Origin: Heptranchias perlo
Taxonomy: Eukaryota
DNA length: 64,000 bases
NCBI RefSeq assembly: GCF_035084215.1
Contig: NC_090331.1
Coordinates: 17,670,001 to 17,734,000 of the forward strand
Direction: 5' to 3'
Shown in pieces: positions 1,198 to 62,165 of the stretch. The position numbers and the translations under genes were made by a program. Under the pieces are notes generated by a model, which worked only from the letters and a program-made list of their open reading frames with translations, was not told the DNA's origin and did not search any database. Every line of letters begins with the position of its first letter. Positions within the stretch are counted from its first letter, which is position 1.

Positions 1198-2968
1198 AGG
1201 GAGGAGGAGGCTCTGTAAACATCCCCATCCTCAATGATGGCGGGGTCCAGCACGTGAGTGCAAAAGACAAGGCTGAAGTGTTTGAAACCATCTTCAGCCA
1301 GAAGTGCCAAGTGGATGATCCATCTCGGCCTCCTCCCGATATCCCCACCATCACAGAAGCCAGTCTTCAGCCAAATTCGATTCACTCCACGTGATATCAA
1401 GAAACAGCTGAGCGCACAGGATACATCAATGGCTATGGGCCCTGACAGCATCCCGGCTGTAGTGCTGAAGACTTGTGCTCCAGAATTAGCCGCGCCTCAA
1501 GCCAAACTGTTCCAGTACAGCTACAACACTGGCATCTACCTGACAATGTGGGAAATTGCCTAGGTATGTCCTGTCCACAAAAAGCAGGACAAATCCAATC
1601 CGGCCAATTACCGTCCCATCAGCCTACTCTCAATCATCAGCAAAGTGATGGAAGGTGTCATCGACAGTGCTATCAAGCAGCACTAAGTCACCAATAACCT
1701 GCTCACCGATGCTCAGTTTGGGTTCCGACAGGACCGCTAGGCTCCAGACCTTATTACAGCCTTGGTCCAAACATGGACAAAAGAGCTGAATTCCAGAGGT
1801 GAGGTGAGAGTGACTGCCTTGACATCAAGGCAGCATTTGATTGAGTGTGGCACCAAGGGAGCCCTAGTAAAATTGAAGTCAATGGGAATCAGGGAGAAAA
1901 CTCTCCAGTGGCTGGAGTCATACCTAGCACAAAGGAAGATGTTAGTGGTTGTTGGTGGCCAATCATCTCAGCCCCAGGGCATTGTTGCAGGAGTTCCTCA
2001 GGGCAGTGTCCTAGGCCCAACCATCTTCAGCTGCTTCATCAATGATCTTCCCTCCATCATAAGGTCAGAAATGGGGATGTTCACTGATGATTGCACAGTG
2101 TTCAATTCGCAACCCCTCAGATAATGAAGCAGTCCGTGCCCGCATGCAGCAAGACCTGGACAACATCCAGGCTTGGGCTGATAAGTGGCAAGTAACATGT
2201 GCGCCAGACAAGTGCCAGGCAATGACCATCTCCAACAAGAGAGAGTCTAACCACCTCCCCTTGACATTCAACGGCATTACCATCGCCGAATCCCCCACCA
2301 TCAACATCCTGGGGGTCACCATTGACCAGAAACTTAACTGGACCAGCCATATAAATACTGTGGCTACAAGAGCAGGTCAGAGGCTGGGTATTCTGCGGCG
2401 AGTGACTCACCTGACTCCCCAAAGCCTTTCCACCATCTACAAGGCACAAGTCAGGAGTGTAATGGAATACTCTCCACTCGCCTGGATGAGTGCAGCTCCA
2501 ACAACACCCAAGAAGCTCGACACCGTCCAGAACAAAGCAGCCCGCTTGATTGGCACCCCATCCACTACCATCAACATTCACTCCCTTCACCACCGGCGCA
2601 CTGTGGCTGCAGTGTGTACCATCCACAGAATGCACTGCAGCAACTCGCCAAGGCTTCTTCGACAGCACCTCGCAAACCCGTGACCTCTACCACCTAAAAG
2701 GACAAGGGCAGCAGGCACATGGGAACAACACCACCTGCACAATCCCCTCCAAGTCACACACCATCCCGACTTGGAAATGTATCGCCATCATCGCTGGGTC
2801 AAAATCCTGGAACTCCCTTCCTAACAGCACTGTGGGAGAACCTTCACCACACTGACTGCAGCGGTTCAAGAAGGCGGCTCACCACCACCTTCTCAAGGGC
2901 AATTAAGGATGGGCAATAAATGCCGGCCTCGCCAGCGACGCCCACAGCCCAGGAACTAATTTTAAAAA
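1198..2968 (+). mobile_element. 5'-truncated non-LTR retrotransposon of the CR1/Jockey group (distinct from the HER1-like CR1s), with disrupted ORF2 reverse transcriptase
   Basis: RT motifs are split across frames: [51 protein letters not shown]. Stops and frameshifts are present. The 3' tail reads ggcaattaaggatgggcaataaatgccggcctcgccagcgacgcccac. Confidence 0.9.
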
Positions 2969-2972
2969 TCTA

Positions 2973-4884
2973 TGTAGAGTTAAGAGAGAAATCAGGAGGG
3001 CAAAAAGGGGACATGAGATTGCTTTGGCAGATAAGGCAAAGGAGAATCCAAAGAGCTTCTACAAATACATAAAGGGCAAAAGAGTAACTAGGGAGAGAGT
3101 AGGGCCTCTTAAGGATCAACAAGGTCATCTATGTGCGGAACCACAAGAGATGGGTAAGATCCTGAATGAATATTTCACATCGGTATTTACGGTTGAGAAA
3201 GGCATGGATGTTAGGGAACTTGGGGAAATAAATAGTGATGTCTTGAGGAATGTACGTATTACAGAGAGGGAGGTGCTGGAAGTCTTAACGTGCATCATGG
3301 TAGATAAATCTCCGGGACCTGATGAAATGTATCCCAGGACGTTATGGGAGGTTAGGGAGGAAATTGCGGGTCCCCTAGCAAAGATATTTGAATCATTGAC
3401 AGCTGCAGGTGAGGTGCCTGAAGATTGGAGGGTAGCAAATGTTGTGCCTTTGTTTAAGAAGGGTGGCAGGGAAAAGCCTGGGAACTACAGACCGGTGAGC
3501 CTGACATCTGTAGTGGGTAAGTTGTTAGAGGGTATTCTGAGAGACAGGATCTACAGGCATTTGGAGAGGCAGGGACTGATTAGGAACAGTCAGCATGGTT
3601 TTGTGAGAGGAAAATCATGTCTCACGAATTTGATTGAGTTTTTTGAAGGGGTAACCAAGAAGATAGATGAGGGCTGTGCCGTAGACGTGGTCTACATGGA
3701 CTTTAGCAAAGCCTTTGACACGGTACTGCATGGTAGGTTGTTACATAAGGTTAAATCACACGGGATCCAAGGTGAGGTAGCCAATTGGATACAAAATTGG
3801 ATTGACGACAGAAGACAGAGGGTGGTTGTAGAGGGTTGTTTTTCAAATTGGAGGCCTGTGACCAGCGGTGTGCCTCAGGGATCGGTGCTGGGTCCGCTGT
3901 TATTTGTTATTTATATTAATGATTTGGATGAGAATTTAGGAGGCATGGTTAGTAAGTTTGCAGATGACACCAAGATTGGTGGCATTGTGGACAGTGAAGA
4001 AGGTTATCTAGGATTGCAACGGGATCTTGATAAATTGGGCCAGTGGGCCGATGAATGGCAGATGGAGTTTAATTTAGATAAATGTGAGGTGATGCATTTT
4101 GGTAGATCGAATCGGGCCAGGACCTACTGCGTTAATGGTAGGGCGTTGGGGAGAGTTATAGAACAAAGAGATCTAGGAGTACAGGTTCATAGCTCCTTGA
4201 AAGTGGAGTCACAGGTGGATAGGGTGGTGAAGAAGGCATTCAGCATGCTTGGTTTCATTGGTCAGAACATTGAACACAGGAGTTGGGACGTCTTGTTGAA
4301 GTTGTACAAGACATTAGTAAGGCCACACTTGGAATACTGTGTACAGTTCTGGTCACCCTATTATAGAAAGGATATTATTAAACTAGAAAGAGTGCAGAAA
4401 AGATTTACTAGGATGCTACCGGGACTTGATGGTTTGACTTATAGGGAGAGGTTAGATAGACTGGGACTTTTTTCCCTGGAGAGTAGGAGGTTAAGGGGTG
4501 ATCTTATAGAAGTCTATAAAATAATGAGGGGCATATATAAGGTAGATAGTCAAAATCTTTTCCCAAAGGTAGGGGAGTCTATAACGAGGGGGCATAGATT
4601 TAAGGTGAGAGGGGAGAGATACAAAAGGGTCCAGAGGGGCAATTTTTTCACTCAAAGGGTGGTGAGTGTCTGGAATGAGCTGCCAGAGGCAGTAGTAGAG
4701 GCGGGTACAATTTTGTCTTTTAAAAAGCATTTGGACAGTTACATGGGTAAGATGGGTATAGAGGGATATGGGCCAAGTGCAGGCAATTGGGACTAGCTTA
4801 GTGGTATAAACTGGGCGACATGGACATGTTGGGCCGAAGGGCCTGTTTCCATGTTGTAAACTTCTATGATTCTATGATTCTATG
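2973..4884 (+). mobile_element. Young 5'-truncated CR1 LINE (HER1-like), RT half of ORF2 still open (3024-4796)
   Basis: 590-aa uninterrupted frame with [40 protein letters not shown] and RPHLEYCVQFWSP. It ends in the stem-loop gggccgaagggcc and an (ATTCTATG)n tail. No endonuclease domain is present, so the copy is non-autonomous. Confidence 0.97.
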
Positions 4885-6479: not shown

Positions 6480-9400
6480 AGGAGATGGAGAATTTACAAA
6501 CTTTTTGCACAGAATAAACACAGGAGCTGAACGTGAGGACTGGAGGACAGCAAGAGCTATTCCGATATCCAAAAAAAGAGATGCGGACCTGGGAATTATC
6601 TACCAATTAGCTTGACATCCACATTGGAGAAAGTGCTGGAGAGAGTTTTTCAGGATTCTATGAATGTCTAACCAAAGAATGCGGAAGGCATACAGAGTAA
6701 TAAGCAAGGATTTAGAAGCAATAGGCCATACCTCACTATGCTGAAATTCTTTGGTGAGGTAACTAGACTGATGGATATAATATACTTGGATTTTTAGAAA
6801 GCACTTAATAAAATTCCAGATGTCAGACCTTTAAAGGAGGTTATGGCTCATAGAATTAATGCCAAATTACTACCCCAGCAGTATGAAGCAGATAAATGAA
6901 AGTAATAAACGGAAAAAGCTGTCTGGGGACAGTGGTGGAGTTTTGCTCCTCTGCCACTCATATTGTTCATAAACGACTTGGAGGAGAGTATTTTCTTATA
7001 ATATTATAACATTTGATGATGATACCAAGTTATGAACTAGGTGACAAATATAAGGGAGAGAATTAGCATTTAAAGAGATCTGGGCAATCTATCTTCAAAA
7101 ACAGGTTGATGCCTTGGAGAGATTTGAGAGTAGAATGAAGGAGATGATTTGGAGATTCAGTGCACTAAGTTATGGGGAGGTAATTGCAGAGCTGAACTGG
7201 TTTTTATTGGAGAAATTAAAGTCAGGGGAGGGGACTGGACCCAGGTCTTTACAATGCTGAGGGCGTAAATGTATGCAGGTTATTTTCGGACTGTGAGCAC
7301 AACCACATTAGAAGTAGAATGAAAGTAAAAAAGCAGGTAGTCTTTTAAAGGATAAACTGGATAAATCTATTACAGATGAGCAGGATATGGGCAGAGACAT
7401 AAATAAATTTTACACATCAGTTTTCATAAAGGACTGCAGACAAATTACAGTCATGATAAATAGGACTAGGTGACTAGTTAGTGAAGAATGTGTTATGTAG
7501 AAACTGTAACAATTAAATATCCATAAAACTCCTGGGCCAAACGAGATACATCCTTGAAACTTCAAGGAATTAAAAGGAGGAAATTAGTAACACTTTGACT
7601 AATATTCTTCAGACCAAAATATATAAATACTGGAAAACTGGACGATGGCAAATATAGTTTCAATATTGAAAAAAATAGTAAAGCACAAACCTGGTAATTA
7701 CAGGGTAGTTATACAACTGGCCTGTAATTACCAGGTCTGTGCTGTACTCTTTATTTTGAATATTTAAATTATATTCACTTGAAAAACTGAGTCTGTTTTC
7801 ATTAGAACAGAGGAGATTGTGGGATAATTTGATAGAGGTGATTAAAATTATGAAGGGATGGGATAAAGTACTTAGAAACAGACTGTTTCCAGTCATTGAG
7901 TGATTTAATACGAGGGGATATAGATATAAGATTAAATGTAAAAGATTTAGGACAGAGAGCAGGAGAAACATTTTTTACACAGAGGGTTTTGAGGCATTGG
8001 AATGCACTATCAGAATTAGTGATTGAAGCAGAGACCATGTCAACATTTAAGAATAGGTTAAATAGGGTGTTGAATGAAAGGGGGATAAAGAGAGATGGGA
8101 ACAGAGTGGGCTTATGGGATTAGGGCTACTGCCTGTCTGGAGGGTAAACACTAACACGGACTGGTTGGGCTGAACGGCTTGTTTCTGTGTTGTAATTCTA
8201 CGTAATCCATAGTGGGGAAAACATGAGGTATCCTACATGATACTATAAATGAACATTTAAAAAACACATCATACAGAGCAGTCAACATAGCTTTAAAAGT
8301 AAGAGGTTATGCCTTAATTCTTTGAATGGTAACTAAACTAGTGGCTGACAGTAATCCAGTACATATTGTTCACTTGGCATTTCAAAAGATGTGATAAACT
8401 TCCTCGTACGGGGCTGGTAAAGAGGCTTAAGACTTATGAAATAATTGATAAGCTATTTAGATGGATTGAGGACTAGCACAACAACAAAAGGCAGGACGGT
8501 GACAAGGGGATAATGCTCTACCTAAGGAAAAGTAACGTGGAGTTCCACAGTAATCTATTCTAGGACCCCTGGCTATTTAAAATATTTGTGAATTAAATGG
8601 ACCAGGGCATCTGTGCTATTACAGTTACTGATGACACATGTGGGCAAATGGAGCAAAGACTAACTATCTTCAGAGAGACTCGGTCCAATTACTTAGATGG
8701 GAGTGAGATATGGCAGATAGAATTTAATATGGATAAATGTAGGATAACGCATTCAGGATCAAGTGGCAGCAAACGTGTACAACTTGAAAGGGTCTCCATT
8801 GGCAGGATAGAGGTCTTTGAAATAGAAGAAAAAGAATTTGGGAGTGATCGTACTCTGAAAGCATCTGGTTGGTGTCAGGCAGTCATTAAAAAGATAATTG
8901 GGTGTACTGGGGTGCATCTGGAGGTCAGAAAAATTTATACTGACATTGCACAGAACAATTGCAAGACCGATTCTAGAGTATAGGTGCAGTTTTTTGTCAC
9001 CCGATTTCAGAATATATGGAGATACAGTAAAAATGATTTGCAGAAAACCTACAGGTCTTAGGGGACCACAGCCTCGTGGCAAAACTTATTTTCACTGGAG
9101 ATAAAACTTGAGGGGATTATGATACATTTCATCAAAATTATGAAAAGTAATGATACAAATGAAATGAACAAATTATTTAGATTGGATAATGAATATACGA
9201 CTAAAAGAGAAAAATGAAAAATTCACAAGCTTGAAACAAGGTTAGAGATTAGAAAAAAATATTTAATTTTACTGTACAAGATTGTCAATATGTGAAACAA
9301 ACACCCACAGAAGGTAGACTTGGTACTTGATATGTGGTGAAATTGACACCTTTAAAAAAAGGAGATTGATTGATATGTGTTGAATAGCAGGATTGAGGGT

Positions 9401-26414: not shown

Positions 26415-29240
26415 GTCGGTAAACTTTCATGAATACAAAAAAAAATCCCCGACATTGAACTTAACGTTGAAGTGCAGTAAATGAAAGTGATCCTACCCGC
26501 CTTTATAGTGCTGTCATCACAGTAGCTTATCATCACAGAGCTAATAGCTGGGGTTAATATGTATGGGTTGTTACTAACTTTGGGGTCAGACGAAGAATCG
26601 GAACAGGTTAGAAGTCGTGATTATAAAGACACGAATCGACCTACATTTCGCACTCAGGGTTAGAATTTCCCTCTGCCCTATTCTGTGGTAGCAGTCTGCA
26701 TATTCAAACTGACTGTGTAACTGTAACATTTCTTAACCACCACTAGAGCTGCAACTCGGTACCAAATGAAGACATATGGACAGTAATAGATTTGGGAGCT
26801 TATTGAGATTTTATTGTAAATTATTGAATGAAGATCATTCACCTTTAATTCGATTCCTTTCACTGGAGCAAACAATTTATTGGTTTTCAAATTTGACGAC
26901 AATACATAAACGCCATCATTGTAGCTGCTGCACACCATAAAATGTGTAGATTTTGAAAAAAAAGTCCAAAGTAAAGATAGTACTGAAAGGGTTACAGTCA
27001 AAACGGACGTTCGAGATAATTAAATGAGGCTCAGGATTTGCCCGTCAATGACAAATTAATTGGTAGCGTGTGTGAAGCTCTAATTTATGGCCATTACATG
27101 AAAAAGTGGTTTGATGTCATGCTTTTCCAGCATTTAAAACAGTTCTTAACAAAAATAGTTGAAAAAATACATCACGCACACACCAGGCTCCATTACAGCT
27201 GCTTATTGGAATGTGGAATCAAAGCGAACACACAACAGATGAGCAAAAACAAAGTAAAAATATGCCTTGATTAAACATATTCTTGGCTTTACTGAGGTAT
27301 TTACTGTACAAAATTTGGTTAAATATTTAAACCAGAAAGCAAAATCAGAAACACCCAACTTGGTCGAGATTGACTAGGTAACGTTTCATGATTTTCATGT
27401 ACGGTATTTTGTACTTATGTGGTTGCAGGTAAATTTACACCAAGTTGAAAAGACGGTGCTTTATTTATAACACTGTACACAGGATAATAACTTTACCATA
27501 AAAAATCATTAAATCTACCATGGGGCAGCACTTAAGACGGTGTAATATTAATGATGAAATATTCCCTCTAAAAGAGCAAATGCACGATTCCTCGTATGTG
27601 TGGAAGGAAAACATTTAGAGACTGGTTTATGGGGAAATTATGTTTCGGGATTAAACCTAGAATCATGTTTCGGTGCTATGTTATAATAAGTAAATAGCTA
27701 TAAGTGTACTTTTAAAATAATACCCACCGGTTTGCGGAATCATGGGTAAAGCGATGAAAATTATGATCGTATTGATAGGAGAAAGCGTTTCACCGTTTCA
27801 TGGTTTGTAATGCGCAGACCTTTTGCTGATTACTTTCTTTACAAGTTCTATCGGAGAAAACCCCCAACCATTTACTGAACAGCGAGGTGGTCTTTGAAAG
27901 ATACTACATCCCAGCCGGTAGTCAGCTTCACAATAGCGACGCAAACATTGTTTTTACGACCTTGTAAAGTTTACAGTAGGGCTAAATAAACGCACTTTTG
28001 AAAGTTGAAGTACCTCCATATATTATGAAAGTGTCTTTGCTCGGGCCCTGCGAGGACACGCTACTTTAAAACGCTTGGAACAAATTTGTAGTTTTTTTAT
28101 TGTAGGAACAGCACAATATATATGACACTGAAGTCTGAACTAAATATTTCTCGGCCCAAATCTTGTTTGCATTCGTGATTGTCATTGCCGTTCAGAAAAT
28201 GCTGTGCCTGAGTATTTAAATCTGTACAATACTTCATGTATCTGTGAAGCGAGAATATGCATAGTCTTCTCAATAGATTAGAATCTAAATAAGTAATTAT
28301 TATTTCAACAGAGTCCCAAATACATGTTCTAATTTAGCAATACTAGAGGAATAGTGTATGCAGGACTATTTTATTAAGAACTTTTTATTCACCCCATCTA
28401 TTGCATAAAATTGGATTAATTTGCACTTGGCGACTAAACTGTTTCAGTTTTGCTATTATATATTTATGATAATATTGTTGGGGGCATCGATACATATTAA
28501 ACCCATAATTTCGTGTTTGAATAAGTCACTTGTTGAAGTGTAATGAAACCTTTGATACTTCTGGCATAAAGTTGCGATTGAATTTGTGAATTTACATTAA
28601 TGGTTTGGAACACATCACACCTCAAAAATTGTCCCAAAGTCCTAGTCTAGAGTATTAAAGTGTCGCCCGATTCTAACGTTGCAATCTTCAAAACGCGTGC
28701 AAACATATTTCGATATTCTACAAATGATGTACTAATAACAGAACGATTTACTGCTATGTATTGGATGAAAAATTACGAACTTCCCTCTATTAGTGTCAAT
28801 GAAGCATGTTTCGCCAGCGTAAACTGATTACTTAGGGGGCTGACCTTTACAACATCAGACTGATTGATAATCCCATCTCTGCTTACGTGAACGGACTGTT
28901 TCCGTTAACTTGTAACATTATTCGTAAACCAAGATTTTCCAATTCAATAAGCTGATATAGAGGTCTGTCTTTTAGTGATTCTCTATTAGGCCTTTAAGAT
29001 AAGGTTTTAGGCATTGATCTTTAGAGCTGCATGTAAAGTTCTTAAACACAGCTGTGCCATCTAAACAAAGTTACAATCAGGCACTTTTTTTCACATTGTG
29101 AACAGCACTGTGAAAGTAATCGCGTCTTAACACACGTTTCTCGCAACTTACTGGAGAATTGTCTTGAATACATTTCTGACTCAGAGGCGAATTTACTGCT
29201 AGTCATACAAGGATTAACATTTTCTATTCTCTTAATGCAG
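26415..29240 (+). other. inhbb: Single intron of inhbb (2826 bp, GT-AG, phase 1)
   Basis: GT at 26415, a pyrimidine tract and AG at 29239-29240. Joining the exons restores the conserved reading frame. Confidence 0.93.
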
Positions 29241-30016
29241 ATGAGCTGGCTTCATCCAAATCACGCCTGTACTTTCTGATTTCAAACGAGGGGAACCAAA
29301 ATCTCTTTGTCCAGCAAGCCAACTTGTGGCTCTATTTGAAACTGCTCCCGTCCAACTCTGAAAAGGGCAGCCGGCGCAAAGTGACGGTGAAAATCTATTT
29401 CCAAGAAGCTGGGAGCTCCAACAAATGGGCATCGGTTGAAAAGAGGGTCGATCTGAAGAGAAGCAGCTGGCACACGTTCCCCATGACGGAGCCCATCCAG
29501 GCTCACTTCGAGAGGGGAGAGAGGAGGCACGACATGGAAGTACGCTGCGAGGGCTGTGAGGGCTTGGCGGTGGCTCCCATCCTGGTGGACAGCGCCGACG
29601 AATCCCACCGACCCTTTCTGGTGGTCCAAGCCCGGGCTCTCGACAGCAAGCACCGGATCCGCAAGAGAGGGCTGGAGTGCGACGGCAGGACCAACCTGTG
29701 CTGCAGACAGCAGTTTTACATTGATTTCCGACTGATCGGCTGGAACGACTGGATCATCGCGCCGACCGGCTACTACGGCAACTACTGCGAGGGGAGCTGC
29801 CCGGTTTACATGGCTGGGGCGCCAGGCTCCGCTTCGTCCTTTCACACGGCCGTGGTCAATCAGTACAGAATGCGAGGCATGAACCCCGGGTCCATGAACT
29901 CCTGCTGCATCCCCACTAAACTCAGCACCATGTCAATGCTCTACTTCGACGATGAGTACAACATCGTGAAGAGGGACGTGCCCAATATGATTGTGGAAGA
30001 ATGTGGTTGTGCATGA
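29241..30016 (+). CDS. inhbb: Inhibin beta B precursor, coding exon 2 (C-terminal prodomain, furin site RIRKR 29654-29668, mature TGF-beta domain 29669-30013)
   Basis: The acceptor ttctcttaatgcag|AT at 29240/29241 joins in frame (G|AT = Asp) to give ...[27 protein letters not shown]. The 115-aa mature peptide [16 protein letters not shown]...VEECGCA has the 9-Cys activin pattern and is beta-B type (about 7 differences from the human sequence as recalled). The spliced CDS is 1173 nt = 390 aa + stop. Confidence 0.98.
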
Positions 30017-39556: not shown

Positions 39557-40767
39557 CTTGTATCCAGGAATATTTAGTACCCAATCCTGCCCTTTTTTGA
39601 GCCAGGTCTCCGTTATCACCACTACACCATATTCCCATGTGGCTATTTGTGCCTGCAGTTCACCAACCTTATTTACCAAGCTTCGAGCGTTTACATACAT
39701 GCTCTCTAAATCTATCTTAGACCTTCTCGTATTTTCTCTTAGTCTGATCCCACCTAATACCTTACTATTTCTGATTCTAGCACTATCTGTCTCCCCCAAT
39801 CCTTTGTGCACCTTGTTTCTCCTTTCTAATGTTAAATCCTGGTGCCCATCCCCCTGCCAAATTAGTTTAAACCTTCCCCCACAGCACTAGTGTACCTCCC
39901 CGCGAGGACATTGGTCCCAGCTTTGTTGGGGTGCAACCCGTCCGGCTTGTACAGGTCCCTCCTGCCCCAGAACTGGACCCAATGTCCCATAAATCTGAAG
40001 CCCTCACTCTTGCACCATGTTTCTAGCCATGCATTAACCTGCCTTATCTTCCTATTTCTGTACTTACTAACGCGTGGCACTGGGAGTAATCCAAAGATTA
40101 CTAGAGGAATTCAAAGCCAAATAGGAAGAAATGCTTTGCCTGTTACAATTTTGTAAAAATGGAGGGGACAATTTCCTCTGGCTTCTGTGTATTAGAAACA
40201 TTGAAAATACAATGGGAAGATTTTCTTAACTATTTCTTGAAAAAACATAAAAGGAATTGAAAAGATATGCCCCAGGGTATCCCTGTGTGACTTGTCTTTC
40301 AATTTTTCTTTTTTCCTAATAGGATAGAGCCTGTGGGCCAAACCTCTGTGGCTCTTCTGAAGTCTCCCATTGTAACTTTGGTAGGAATACACTAGAAGGG
40401 ATGTAAATCAGGCCAGGACCCAGATATGCCAGTTCCCTGCCTTATGTTGGGAGTTCTAGCATGGCATATTAGGGATGAAGTTTCTGCCCATCCCAAACAA
40501 GGCTGTTGACATGAGGGGGAGCAGGCTGAGGGTGGGGACTCCCTATGCCAGGAGTTCCCATGTTCCCAGCCTTTAGTTGGGGTATGGTCAGCAGAGGTAT
40601 GCCTACTGAGACCAGGCATCATTAAAAAGTATTTCTGCATTGTCCCAGTCACTTGTACTTATTTGTTACACCACAGTGTACCATTCTAATAATCATAACA
40701 CAAGCCAGTCACTATGAACCAGACAATTCTTGTGCTTGATGTAATGTAGAACCCATCTTGCTTTGCA

Positions 40768-43608: not shown

Positions 43609-44034
43609 GGTGTCAGCCTTGTGTGGTAGCACTTACAGCTCTGAGTTAGAAACTCGTGGGTTCAAGCCCCTAATCCAGAGACATGAACATATAATCTAGG
43701 CTGGCACTTTAGTGCAGTACAGAGGGTGTGCTGCAGAGGTGCCATCTTTTGGATGAAATGTTAAACTAAGGTCCCGTCTGCCCACTCAGGTGGATGTAAA
43801 AGATTCCTCGGCACTATTCAAAGAAGAACAGGGGAGGTCTCACGGTACCCTGGCCAATATCTGTCCCTCAATCAACACCTAAAAAAACACGATGATCTGG
43901 TCATTTATTTCATTGCTGCCGCATTTCTTACATTACAACAGTGACTACACTTCAAAAGTACTTAATTGGCTGCAAAGCGTTTTGAGACGTCCTGAGGTCG
44001 TTATATAAATGCAAGCCTTTCTTTCTTTTCTTTT
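43609..44034 (+). mobile_element. Deu-domain tRNA-derived SINE, near full length
   Basis: Head gtgtcagcc...gggttcaagccc, Deu-type core and L2-type tail with (CTTT)n. TSD acataa at 43603-43608 and 44035-44040. Confidence 0.82.
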
Positions 44035-44063
44035 ACATAAAATTTTGGGCTACTTAAAATAAA

Positions 44064-44307
44064 ACAATTGTAAACAATTTTACAACACCAAGTTATAGTC
44101 CAGCAATTTTATTTTAAATTCACAAGCTTTCGGAGATTTTCTCCTTCCTCAGGCAAATGTTTCAAGATCTCCTTGAAGCATTTGCCTGAGGAAGGAGAAA
44201 ATCTCCGAAAGCTTGTGAATTTAAAATAAAATTGCTGGACTATAACTTGGTGTTGTAAAATTGTTTACAATTGTCAACCCCAGTCCATCACCGGCATCTC
44301 CACATCA
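44064..44307 (+). mobile_element. PLE terminus, PLE family A, as a 103-bp near-perfect palindrome plus 33-nt tail
   Basis: Arms 44064-44166 and 44172-44274 have 1 mismatch around a 5-nt spacer. TSD taaaataaa(aca) at 44055-44066 and 44308-44319. Confidence 0.88.
44180..44220 (+). ncRNA. Minimal type I hammerhead ribozyme motif (mirror copy on the minus strand at 44118-44158)
   Basis: AUUUGC-CUGAGGA-A-GGAGA-aaa-UCUCC-GAAA-GC-UU-GUGAAU has canonical CUGANGA and GAAA cores, stem I with two G-U pairs, stem II and the palindrome AAGCUU. Confidence 0.8.
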
Positions 44308-44389
44308 TAAAATAAAACAGATTAATGACTGTTTTAAAACAGAGGATAAAGAAATTTTGCTTGAACGCATTAACTGGTGCCACTTTCAG

Positions 44390-50204: not shown

Positions 50205-50810
50205 AAAAATTCAATCTGTGGATTTGGACCTCGCTAGCAAGGCTAGCATTTATTGCTCATCCCTAGCTGCCCTTGAGAAGGTGGTGGTGAGCCTTCCTCT
50301 TGAACCGCTGCAGTCCATTTGGTGAAGGTACTCCCACAGTGCTGTTAGGTAGGGAGTTCCAGGATTTTGACTCAGCAACCATGAAGGAACGGCGATATAT
50401 GTTCAAGTCGGGATGATGCGTGACTTGGAAGGGAACTTGGAGGTGATGGCGTTCCCATACACTTCCCAGTTCGGACGAAAGGTCATCGACCTGAAACATT
50501 AACTCTGCTTCTTTCTCCACAGATGCAGCCTGAGTATTTCCAGCATTTCCCATGTACTTGCTGCCCTTGTCCTTCTCATGGGTTTGGGAGGTGCTGTCGA
50601 AGAAGTCTTAGCAAGTTGCTGCAGTCTATTCTGTAGATAGTACACACTGCAGCCGTGGTGCACTGGTGGAGGAAGGAGTGGATGTTTAAGGTGGTGGCTG
50701 GGCTACCAATCGAGTGGACTACTTTGTCCTGGATGGTATCGAGCTTCTTGTTGTTGTAGCTGCACCCATCCAGGCAAGTGGAGAGTATTCCATCACACTC
50801 CTGACTTGTG
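50205..50810 (-). mobile_element. 3' fragment of the LINE family at 1198-2968, interrupted by a PLE family B piece
   Basis: QVRSVMEYSPLAWM and SKSWNSLPNSTVG on the minus strand match 2450-2950. Confidence 0.88.
50465..50546 (+). mobile_element. 82-bp PLE family B insertion consisting essentially of a hammerhead motif (50468-50504)
   Basis: AGUU-CGGACGA-A-AGGUC-auc-GACCU-GAAA-CA-UU-AACU. A 13-bp TSD with 2 mismatches reads ttcccatacactt (50452-50464) / ttcccatgtactt (50547-50559). Confidence 0.75.
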
Positions 50811-54730: not shown

Positions 54731-54907
54731 ATAGTCTTAAAAAGCATTTTTCGTAGATGAACCCCCAACTACCAGCCGTTTCACCCTAGCTCTCAATCCC
54801 TTCTCTCAAAAGAAATGCATCTACTTTTCTTTTGAACCTATTTACATCGTCCACTTCAATAGCTTATTGTTTCATTACATAACAATAGTCACTGTGCTTC
54901 TAAGGTA

Positions 54908-55191
54908 TGATGTGGAGATGCCGGTGATGGACTGGGGTTGACAATTGTAAATAATTTTACAACACCAAGTTATAGTCCAACAATTTTATTTTAAAATTCA
55001 CAAGCTTTCGGAGGCTTCCTCCTTCCTCAGGTGAATGTCAAGAAATCCTCGAACCTCTCGCATTTATAAATCACAGAACAATACCTGGTGATTACAGATA
55101 GACTTTTCAACTGCCCGTTGCCAAGGCAACGGGCAGTTGAAAAGACTATCTGTAAGACTATCTAAAGACTATCTGTAAGACTATCTAAAGA
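54908..55191 (-). mobile_element. PLE family A terminus with fold-back and reiterated junction
   Basis: 54908-55036 is the reverse complement of 44180-44307 with few changes. Exact 11-bp TSD cttctaaggta at 54897-54907 and 55192-55202. Confidence 0.88.
54996..55036 (-). ncRNA. Minimal type I hammerhead ribozyme motif
   Basis: The minus strand reads AUUCAC-CUGAGGA-A-GGAGG-aag-CCUCC-GAAA-GC-UU-GUGAAU, with a perfect 6-bp stem I and 5-bp stem II. Confidence 0.83.
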
Positions 55192-55224
55192 CTTCTAAGG
55201 TAATGTGTTGTACAAAGTAACTTC

Positions 55225-60825: not shown

Positions 60826-62165
60826 AGACAGGATCTACGGGCATTTGGAGAGGCAGGGACTGATTAGGAACAGTCAGCATGGTTTTGTGAGAGGAAAATC
60901 ATGTCTCACAAATTTGATTGAGTTTTTTGAAGGGGTAACCAAGAAGATAGATGAGGACTGTGCAGTAGACGTGGTCTACATGGACTTTAGCAATGCCTTT
61001 GACAAGGTACCGCATGGTAGGTTGTTACATAAGGTTAGATGTCACGGGATCCAAGGTGAGGTAGCCAATTGGATACAAAATTGGATTGACGACAGAAGAC
61101 AGAGGGTGGTTGTAGAGGGTTGTTTTTCAAATTGGAGGCCAGTGACCAGCGGTGTGCCTCAGGGATCGGTGCTGGGTCCGCTGTTATTTGTTATTTATAT
61201 TAATGATTTGGATGAGAATTTGGAGGCATGGTTAGTAAGTTTGCAGATGACACCAAGATTGGTGGCTTTGTGGACAGTGAAGAAGGTTATCTAGGATTGC
61301 AACGGGATCTTGATAAATTGGGCCAGTGGGCCGATGAATGGCAGATGGAGTTTAATTTAGATAAATGTGAGGTGATGCATTTTGGTAGATCGAATCGGGC
61401 CAGGACCTACTCCGTTAATGGTAGGGCGTTGGGGAGAGTTATAGAACAAAGAGATCTAGGAGTACAGGTTCATAGCTCCTTGAAAGTGGAGTCACAGGTG
61501 GATAGGGTGGTGAAGAAGGCATTCAGCATGCTTGGTTTCATTGGTCAGAACATTGAATACAGGAGTTGGGATGTCTTGTTGAAGTTGTACAAGGCATTAG
61601 TCAGGCCACACTTGGAATACTGTGTACAGTTCTGGTCACCCTATTATAGAAAGGATATTATTAAACTAGAAAGAGTGCAGAAAAGATTTACTAGGATGCT
61701 ACCGGGACTTAATGGTTTGACTTATAGGGAGAGTTTGGATAGACTGAGACTTTTTTCCCTGGAGAGTAGGAGGTTTAGGGGTGATCTTATAGAAGTCTAT
61801 AAAATAATGAGGGGCACAGATAAAGTAGATAGTCAAAATCTTTTCCCAAAGGTAGGGGAGTCTATAACGAGGGGGCACAGATTTAAGGTGAGAGGGGGGT
61901 GATACAAAAGGGCCCAGAGGGGCAATTTTTTCACTCAAAGGGTGGTGAGTGTCTGGAACGAGCTGCCAGAGGCAGTAGTAGAGGCGGGTACAATTTTGTC
62001 TTTTAAAAAGCATTTGGACAGTTACATGGGTAAGATGAGTATAGAGGGATATGGGCCAAGTGCAGGCAACTGGGACTAGCTTAGTGGTATAAACTGGGCG
62101 ACATGGACATGTTGGGCCGAAGGGCCTGTTTCCATGTTGTCAACTTCTATGATTCTATGATTCTA
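60826..62165 (+). mobile_element. Young 5'-truncated CR1 LINE, same subfamily as 2973-4884
   Basis: Colinear and near-identical to 3542-4884, with a 1-bp deletion near 61221, a premature TGA at 61900-61902 and an (ATTCTATG)n tail. Confidence 0.97.

Follow-up and report, generated by a model that had tools for sequence, protein, structure and literature searches.

A hammerhead-bearing palindrome downstream of INHBB in Heptranchias perlo as a probable truncated, head-to-head Penelope-like insertion

The window analysed here, 64 kb of Heptranchias perlo DNA (NC_090331.1, positions 17,670,001 to 17,734,000), contains a palindromic unit at 44055-44319 that is best explained as one severely 5'-truncated insertion of the pLTR end of an endonuclease-bearing (EN+) Penelope-like retrotransposon (PLE), inverted head-to-head; we put the probability of this reading at about 0.85. 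So read, the unit is an ordinary by-product of insertion and is not demonstrated as a mobile unit of its own. It does not stand alone: the window holds two hammerhead-bearing Penelope-like families, with at least four insertions between them.

The anatomy of the unit is largely what a first-pass annotation, made from the sequence, had described: a 103-bp inverted repeat with one mismatch and a 5-nt spacer, a 33-nt tail, and a TSD of 9-12 bp. A repeat search places the arms, 103 nt each, at 44064-44166 and 44172-44274, with the spacer at 44167-44171 and a single mismatch in 103 positions (T44160 opposite G44178). This is the strongest inverted repeat of the window, and its predicted fold has an MFE of -173.2 kcal/mol, where shuffled sequences average -42.4 (z = -28; 0/200 shuffles were as stable). 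The left arm corresponds to the 3' segment of the pLTR on the minus strand and lacks the tail, and the right arm is the same segment in direct orientation on the plus strand; the two meet at a fold-back junction (44161-44177) in which a 6-bp stem encloses the spacer. The tail follows the direct arm on the plus strand, at one end only, and spans 44275-44307 (33 nt), or 34 nt if T44308 is included. It is 74% A+C and identical in a second copy of the family; in the predicted fold of single-arm RNA it closes a stem-loop by pairing back onto the arm. Around the whole, the target is AT-rich and the direct repeat short: 44055-44066 and 44308-44319, on the plus strand, are identical at 12/12 positions (chance about 7e-6, allowing 20 positions). 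As this repeat overlaps the inverted arm by its last 3 nt on the left and the tail by 1 nt on the right, the TSD measures 8-12 bp according to the assignment. As a separate observation, the target at 44054-44064 has 11 nt in common with an AT-rich stretch inside the element (44221-44231), which is not the case for the target of the second copy.

Each arm carries a hammerhead motif made of a 6-bp stem I, which includes two G-U pairs, the sequence CUGAGGA, one extra A after A9, a 5-bp stem II with a 3-nt loop, GAAA, two nucleotides and UH. On the plus strand (44180-44220), stem I is formed by 44180-85 with 44215-20, C3 is at 44186, the extra A at 44193, stem II at 44194-44206 and an AGCU palindrome at 44210-13; U17 is at 44214, after which cleavage is predicted, at the same position as in the first annotation. 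On the minus strand (44118-44158), C3 is at 44152 and U17 at 44124, with the predicted cut 3' of 44124. The motifs had been called intact. This is correct for the core, but not for helix III, for which there is no intramolecular helix, only the AGCU palindrome.

How specific is such a small motif? Our descriptor of the minimal type I hammerhead, written after the motif had been seen and with the features of Cervera 2014 known, matches three times in the whole window on both strands, namely in the two arms and in the second copy (C3 at 55030), compared with a mean of 0.03 (maximum 1) in 60 dinucleotide shuffles; none of the 60 gave a match with the palindromic helix III segment. The class first assigned, minimal type I, is supported. 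The bare CUGANGA..GAAA pattern is weak by itself, with 10 matches in the window against an expected mean of 4.6. Rfam models, proposed earlier as a check, returned no match at the gathering threshold for the whole window; at E up to 10, the unit, a single arm and the second copy matched no hammerhead family, only miRNA and sRNA models, all driven by the hairpin and below threshold. Given a weak bare core and no Rfam match, the motif call rests on the descriptor together with the published features of minimal motifs, of which the core, the extra nucleotide after A9, G10.1-C11.1 and the palindromic helix III segment (15.2-16.2) are present.

In the window, INHBB occupies two exons, at about 26018-26413 and 29237-30013, and its best protein matches are elasmobranch: Heterodontus (95%, second exon), Carcharodon (92%) and Mobula (92%). 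The unit lies 14 kb beyond the stop codon, between a repeat at 43623-44027, which is present elsewhere in the window too and which we take to be SINE-like, and a LINE 3' fragment that starts at about 44366. A Pfam scan of 150 of the 153 open segments of at least 75 aa in the window found RVT_1 in nine segments and GIY-YIG in none. In agreement with the initial description of the unit as free of ORFs, no ORF of 120 aa was found inside or adjoining it, and no Penelope ORF was seen within the 64 kb; an autonomous EN+ PLE was rejected as the identity of the unit, there being no ORF with RT and GIY-YIG in it or next to it. The longest segment belongs to a vertebrate LINE, presumably CR1, whose relatives carry an APE-type endonuclease in a homolog search, and the two segments nearest the unit align with the proteins of this same LINE. 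Because no parent ORF is linked to the pLTR, the PLE identity rests on non-coding hallmarks. These are the hammerhead, the tail, the TSD and the inverted pLTR, and by them the Penelope link, already proposed in the first-pass annotation, is well supported.

Other features of the window deserve a mention. Two young LINE copies, at 2907-4796 and 60826-62165, are 97% identical over 1.3 kb, and in the former a frame of 629 aa that encodes an RT domain has stayed open. On the minus strand, 39865-40110 gives a weak Pfam match, under the cut-off, to a GDSL-like lipase/acylhydrolase, possibly, we assume, the remnant of a LINE ORF1 esterase. A lone 28-nt inverted repeat with a 16-nt spacer at 7677-7748 is without a hammerhead core.

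A second family copy, overlooked in the first-pass annotation, lies on the minus strand at 54897-55202, 11 kb from the unit. It is flanked by an 11-bp TSD (55192-55202 and 54897-54907, 11/11 identical) and ends at its 3' side at the same base as the first copy. It extends further upstream and has a single hammerhead, and its inverted arms, at 55092-55155, are 31 nt long. The fold-back lies 93 nt upstream of C3, compared with 17 nt in the first copy, so that a fixed 3' end goes with a differing 5' structure in both of the family copies available in the window. A TATA-like box at 55068, 38 nt upstream of C3, is absent from the first copy; with the usual spacing from TATA box to start, it would place the transcription start at the beginning of stem I.

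Some further details of this second copy are worth recording. Between its short inverted arm and the TSD lie 36 nt (55156-55191) of 11-12-nt near-duplications, which resemble both the arm end and the target and look like repeated slippage at the junction. The centre of its palindrome (55117-55130), about 50 nt upstream of the TATA-like box, resembles what we take to be an RFX X-box; the sequence is palindromic by construction, and a match at one mismatch was reached in 13/100 shuffles. The last two letters are shared by both copies and are those with which a start codon would begin (44304-44309 and 54906-54911), and both targets begin with TA; speculatively, the ORF of the parent may begin right at the end of the tail. 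Two scans for stray copies in bacterial and archaeal genomes gave 0 loci and 6 loci, respectively; the latter match over 21-23 nt only, and were rejected as family copies and taken as chance.

Is the palindrome, then, mobile as such? The first-pass annotation had seen in it a fold-back mini-element of its own, and a specific form of this idea can be stated: the ~245-bp palindrome-plus-tail would itself be transcribed and re-inserted by a Penelope protein as a non-autonomous element with a fixed fold-back point. We consider this unlikely. The same low expectation applies to the broader proposal that shark Penelope ends gave rise to a self-propagating palindromic mini-element, a retrotransposed analogue of MITEs, whose RNA would be copied as a hairpin and whose hammerhead would, on either strand, be locked by the antisense arm. 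The only sister copy speaks against both, since it folds back at a different point and has one ribozyme, although this comparison rests on n = 2 copies. The absence from the first copy of the TATA-like box of the second is a further objection, and so is the loss of the tail stem-loop, likely the structure at which reverse transcription starts, in the centroid fold of the full hairpin. Searches of the open literature, which did not extend to Repbase and Dfam, turned up no description of this family in sharks, nor of any palindromic pLTR unit that propagates itself.

There are, however, observations on the other side. Compared with the second copy, the first shows 7 substitutions and 2 indels, all of them present in both of its arms. 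Five of the changes fall inside the hammerhead and none in its core (p about 0.06), and the four of these that lie in stems preserve pairing, by two G-U wobbles and one G-C to A-U double change. The second family of the window, described below, repeats the same plan. In Adineta, according to the accessible text of Arkhipova 2013 (PMC3846280), pLTR sequences are all that mobilisation in trans requires. If the mini-element existed, a subfamily would be marked by the arm variants private to the first copy, and the second family would represent an earlier, parallel instance. These variants leave some room for a separate fold-back subfamily. Yet a different autonomous subfamily explains the variants equally well, and the sparing of the core would reflect the parent either way. 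Being common to both arms, the 7 substitutions and 2 indels indicate that the first copy came from a different source sequence than the second; this points to a different source copy with a conserved fold, and does not thereby imply that the palindrome was the mobile unit.

Whether copies share one fold-back point had been named in advance as the test to make. The two copies in the window differ, but with n = 2, and the test is not decisive in principle: a small native hairpin underlies the fold-back, which could for this reason arise more than once independently. The junction of the first copy is in register with a small imperfect hairpin of the second, with the same 5-nt loop, in both MFE and centroid folds, and of the 79 upstream windows of the second copy only 2, this register among them, can close a 5-nt loop with 4 or more of 5 pairs complementary. 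On the antisense strand of the second copy, a G-U pair of this hairpin becomes an A-C mismatch, and a snap-back scan of that strand, with 13 candidates among 93 ends, does not list the junction of the first copy. Both facts indicate that the junction hairpin is weak in the version of the second copy; the parent of the first copy may have had a better one.

The second hammerhead-bearing family offers a useful comparison. At 15496-15753 lies a decayed palindrome whose 80-nt arms have 6 mismatches in 80 and each hold a hammerhead core with a single deviating letter; its tail measures about 46 nt, and its 14-bp duplication has 2 mismatches. A solo copy, non-palindromic and tail-less, is found at 50452-50559, where it interrupts the 3' part of a LINE-like repeat; its own 13-bp duplication also has 2 mismatches. 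It ends within about 3 nt of the end of the inverted arm of the palindrome, so that the outer end of the inverted arm appears to be used by ordinary insertions as well. A very old remnant at about 18420-18540 matches the tail of this family by eye, its palindrome centre apparently deleted. The 6 mismatches in 80 indicate that arms diverge with time, and the near-identity of the arms of our unit (102/103), together with its 12/12 TSD, is on this account fair evidence of youth; the recency claimed for the unit from its arms is thus moderately supported.

What would the unit do if it were transcribed? In four read-through cases, co-transcriptional truncations included, the hairpin is favoured over the hammerhead fold by 62-70 kcal/mol, and the hammerhead-fold share is predicted at 1e-44 to 1e-50; in five cases with a single arm or the second copy it is 0.9-9%, all of these shares being equilibrium predictions and not assays. 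The initial annotation had reasoned that a transcript from either strand would hold one ribozyme plus its exact antisense, which agrees with the one hammerhead per strand, head-to-head, found here; it had also anticipated a competition between hairpin and ribozyme, and this was right in direction but much understated. Owing to the head-to-head arrangement, the antisense arm is transcribed before the ribozyme on either strand, and with the hairpin ahead by this much, cleavage is not expected in read-through RNA. In the folding model, the ribozyme of the first copy is almost certainly inactive within the unit, a passenger that, for lack of helix III, would need a same-sense partner. Read-through would yield a 103-bp dsRNA instead of cleaved RNA, and a transcript initiated within the spacer would escape the masking. 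Even on their own, monomer hammerhead folds are no more stable than shuffles (z from -0.3 to -1.9), and a two-strand cofold has an MFE structure in which stems I and II are swapped between the strands and helix III is not formed, so that the dimeric hammerhead is not recovered. With the TATA-like box cut off upstream, the antisense arm first and no helix III, the unit is most likely inert.

These predictions bear on a reading that we consider very improbable, namely a retrozyme-like or regulatory ribozyme locus that cleaves itself and makes circular or small RNAs. As it would require, neither arm has lost a letter of the catalytic core. U is, on the other hand, the weakest H at position 17, and the site, 14 kb past the INHBB stop and lodged between SINE-like and LINE 3' fragments, does not recommend it, and neither does the predicted hammerhead-fold share, below 1e-43 in read-through RNA. 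From the portions available of Cervera 2020 (PMC7229834) and Li 2026 (10.64898/2026.07.22.740005), retrozymes are head-to-tail tandems with at least two same-sense hammerheads, whereas the unit is head-to-head with one hammerhead per strand. Non-LTR retrozymes do derive from PLE pLTRs and occur in the one chondrichthyan sampled, as far as the accessible text of Li 2026 goes. On cleavage as such, the available text of Frangieh 2024 (PMC11167929) states that the PAc hammerhead of Anolis cleaves with the help of its protein and is dispensable for insertion, and that of Cervera 2014 (PMC4209133) that a single minimal hammerhead does not cleave and dimers do so at a low level.

An assembly or library fold-back artefact is less probable again. 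The window is part of a scaffold and has a 150-N gap elsewhere, and short-read assemblies are known to have difficulties with inverted PLE structures, according to the accessible part of Craig 2021 (PMC8557442); a chimeric read, however, would not be expected to show a TSD, a one-sided tail and one mismatch between the arms, nor would it explain why another family has a decayed palindrome built on the same plan. Last, and close to negligible, comes a MITE or long-TIR DNA transposon, or else a miRNA precursor: a long near-perfect inverted repeat with a TSD and several MIR models at E < 1e-9 would suit them, but the 34-nt tail between one arm and the right TSD means that the repeats are not terminal, the second copy has a TSD without such a repeat, and all the MIR scores fall below gathering thresholds, in alignments that show pairing and not a sequence match. 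As identities of the unit, MITE, miRNA, retrozyme and assembly artefact were thus rejected on the evidence of the tail, the scores, the orientation and the TSD.

Returning to the truncated Penelope-like insertion, the question is how such a palindrome could be made. By analogy with the biochemistry of PAc from Anolis, an RT/GIY-YIG protein from a full-length copy elsewhere would act in trans and make a staggered cut in AT-rich DNA, to which the TSD would be due, and only the last ~140 nt of the RNA would be reverse-transcribed. The tail is likely the stretch between two start sites of reverse transcription, an assignment that draws on Frangieh 2024 (PMC11167929). For the next step we lean, by a little, towards a route in which both nicks are primed, one from the outer start site, giving the tailed arm, and the other from the inner site, giving the tail-less arm, and the two like-ended cDNAs then anneal through the native hairpin upstream of the ribozyme. 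This two-cDNA route is our own proposal and is not stated in the available text of the literature cited here. Priming at both ends would explain why one arm is without exactly the tail, and why, in the second family, the solo copy has its end at the boundary of the inverted arm. The other route, in which a single cDNA snaps back on the native hairpin and is trimmed at the tail boundary, is possible but the less probable of the two. It has one clear merit: the 31-nt arm of the second copy stops short of the inner start site, which the two-cDNA route leaves unexplained and for which snap-back with trimming accounts better.

On the best reading, the locus carries little weight by itself, dead Penelope ends like it being probably very numerous. 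Its modest value is that of a readable record of PLE integration; the accessible text of Frangieh 2024 (PMC11167929) leaves unvalidated both how PLEs finish insertion and why one arm is tail-less. If very short palindromic insertions with intact TSDs were as common in elasmobranch genomes as this one window would lead one to expect, they would allow two-ended priming to be tested against snap-back. Were the unlikely mini-element real, it would represent a new kind of non-autonomous retroelement.

How does the unit compare with the known systems nearest to it? With the non-LTR retrozymes it has in common that it is ORF-less, derived from a pLTR, a few hundred bp long and equipped with a type I hammerhead; it differs in that, as far as the available texts describe them, retrozymes release monomers and circles, whereas here a single head-to-head unit has its ribozyme masked.

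A further comparison is with the minimal hammerheads of PLE pLTRs. As described in the accessible part of Cervera 2014 (PMC4209133), these have no helix III, a palindromic 15.1-16.1 segment, an extra nucleotide after A9 and G10.1-C11.1, they number thousands per genome in coelacanth and frog, and dual motifs on opposite strands are read as probable truncated PLEs. All these hallmarks of the motif are found in the first copy, together with the dual arrangement on opposite strands, although its cores are separated by 34 nt, and those of Schistosoma by about 100-700 bp. That part of the paper does not mention sharks.

As for PAc, a Poseidon element of Anolis, its protein acts on AT-rich DNA, where it cuts both strands and extends them, its reverse transcription initiates in an AC-rich stem-loop at 111-118 nt from the start of the ORF, which itself begins at stem II, and its tail sits between two start sites, all according to the available text of Frangieh 2024 (PMC11167929). 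The first copy differs in that its core is without an ATG and its region without an open frame. It resembles PAc in its tail, its AT-rich target and the order of its parts, a hammerhead followed by an A+C-rich stem-loop end about 115 nt on; the distance from stem II to the end of the tail is 115-116 nt, which falls within the 111-118 nt of PAc.

There are, finally, the inverted-pLTR insertions of EN+ PLEs. The accessible text of Arkhipova 2013 (PMC3846280) describes inverted pLTRs with a 31-bp tail on one of them, TSDs of 8-10 bp in the Adineta examples (11-12 bp in our two copies), and junction palindromes read as self-priming; that of Craig 2021 (PMC8557442) gives the same inverted plan and ascribes the tail to endonuclease resolution. 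The first copy differs from the insertions so described in having no ORF at all and only ~140 nt of pLTR end, a truncation so extreme that the whole insert is one palindrome. Its parts are otherwise familiar: inverted pLTRs, junction palindromes, tails of 30-40 nt, TSDs and minimal hammerheads on opposite strands are all known, in the texts available, from truncated Penelope-like insertions, and the unit shares with the EN+ elements the head-to-head pLTR, the junction palindrome, the one-sided tail of that length, the short TSD, the AT-rich target and the 5' truncation.
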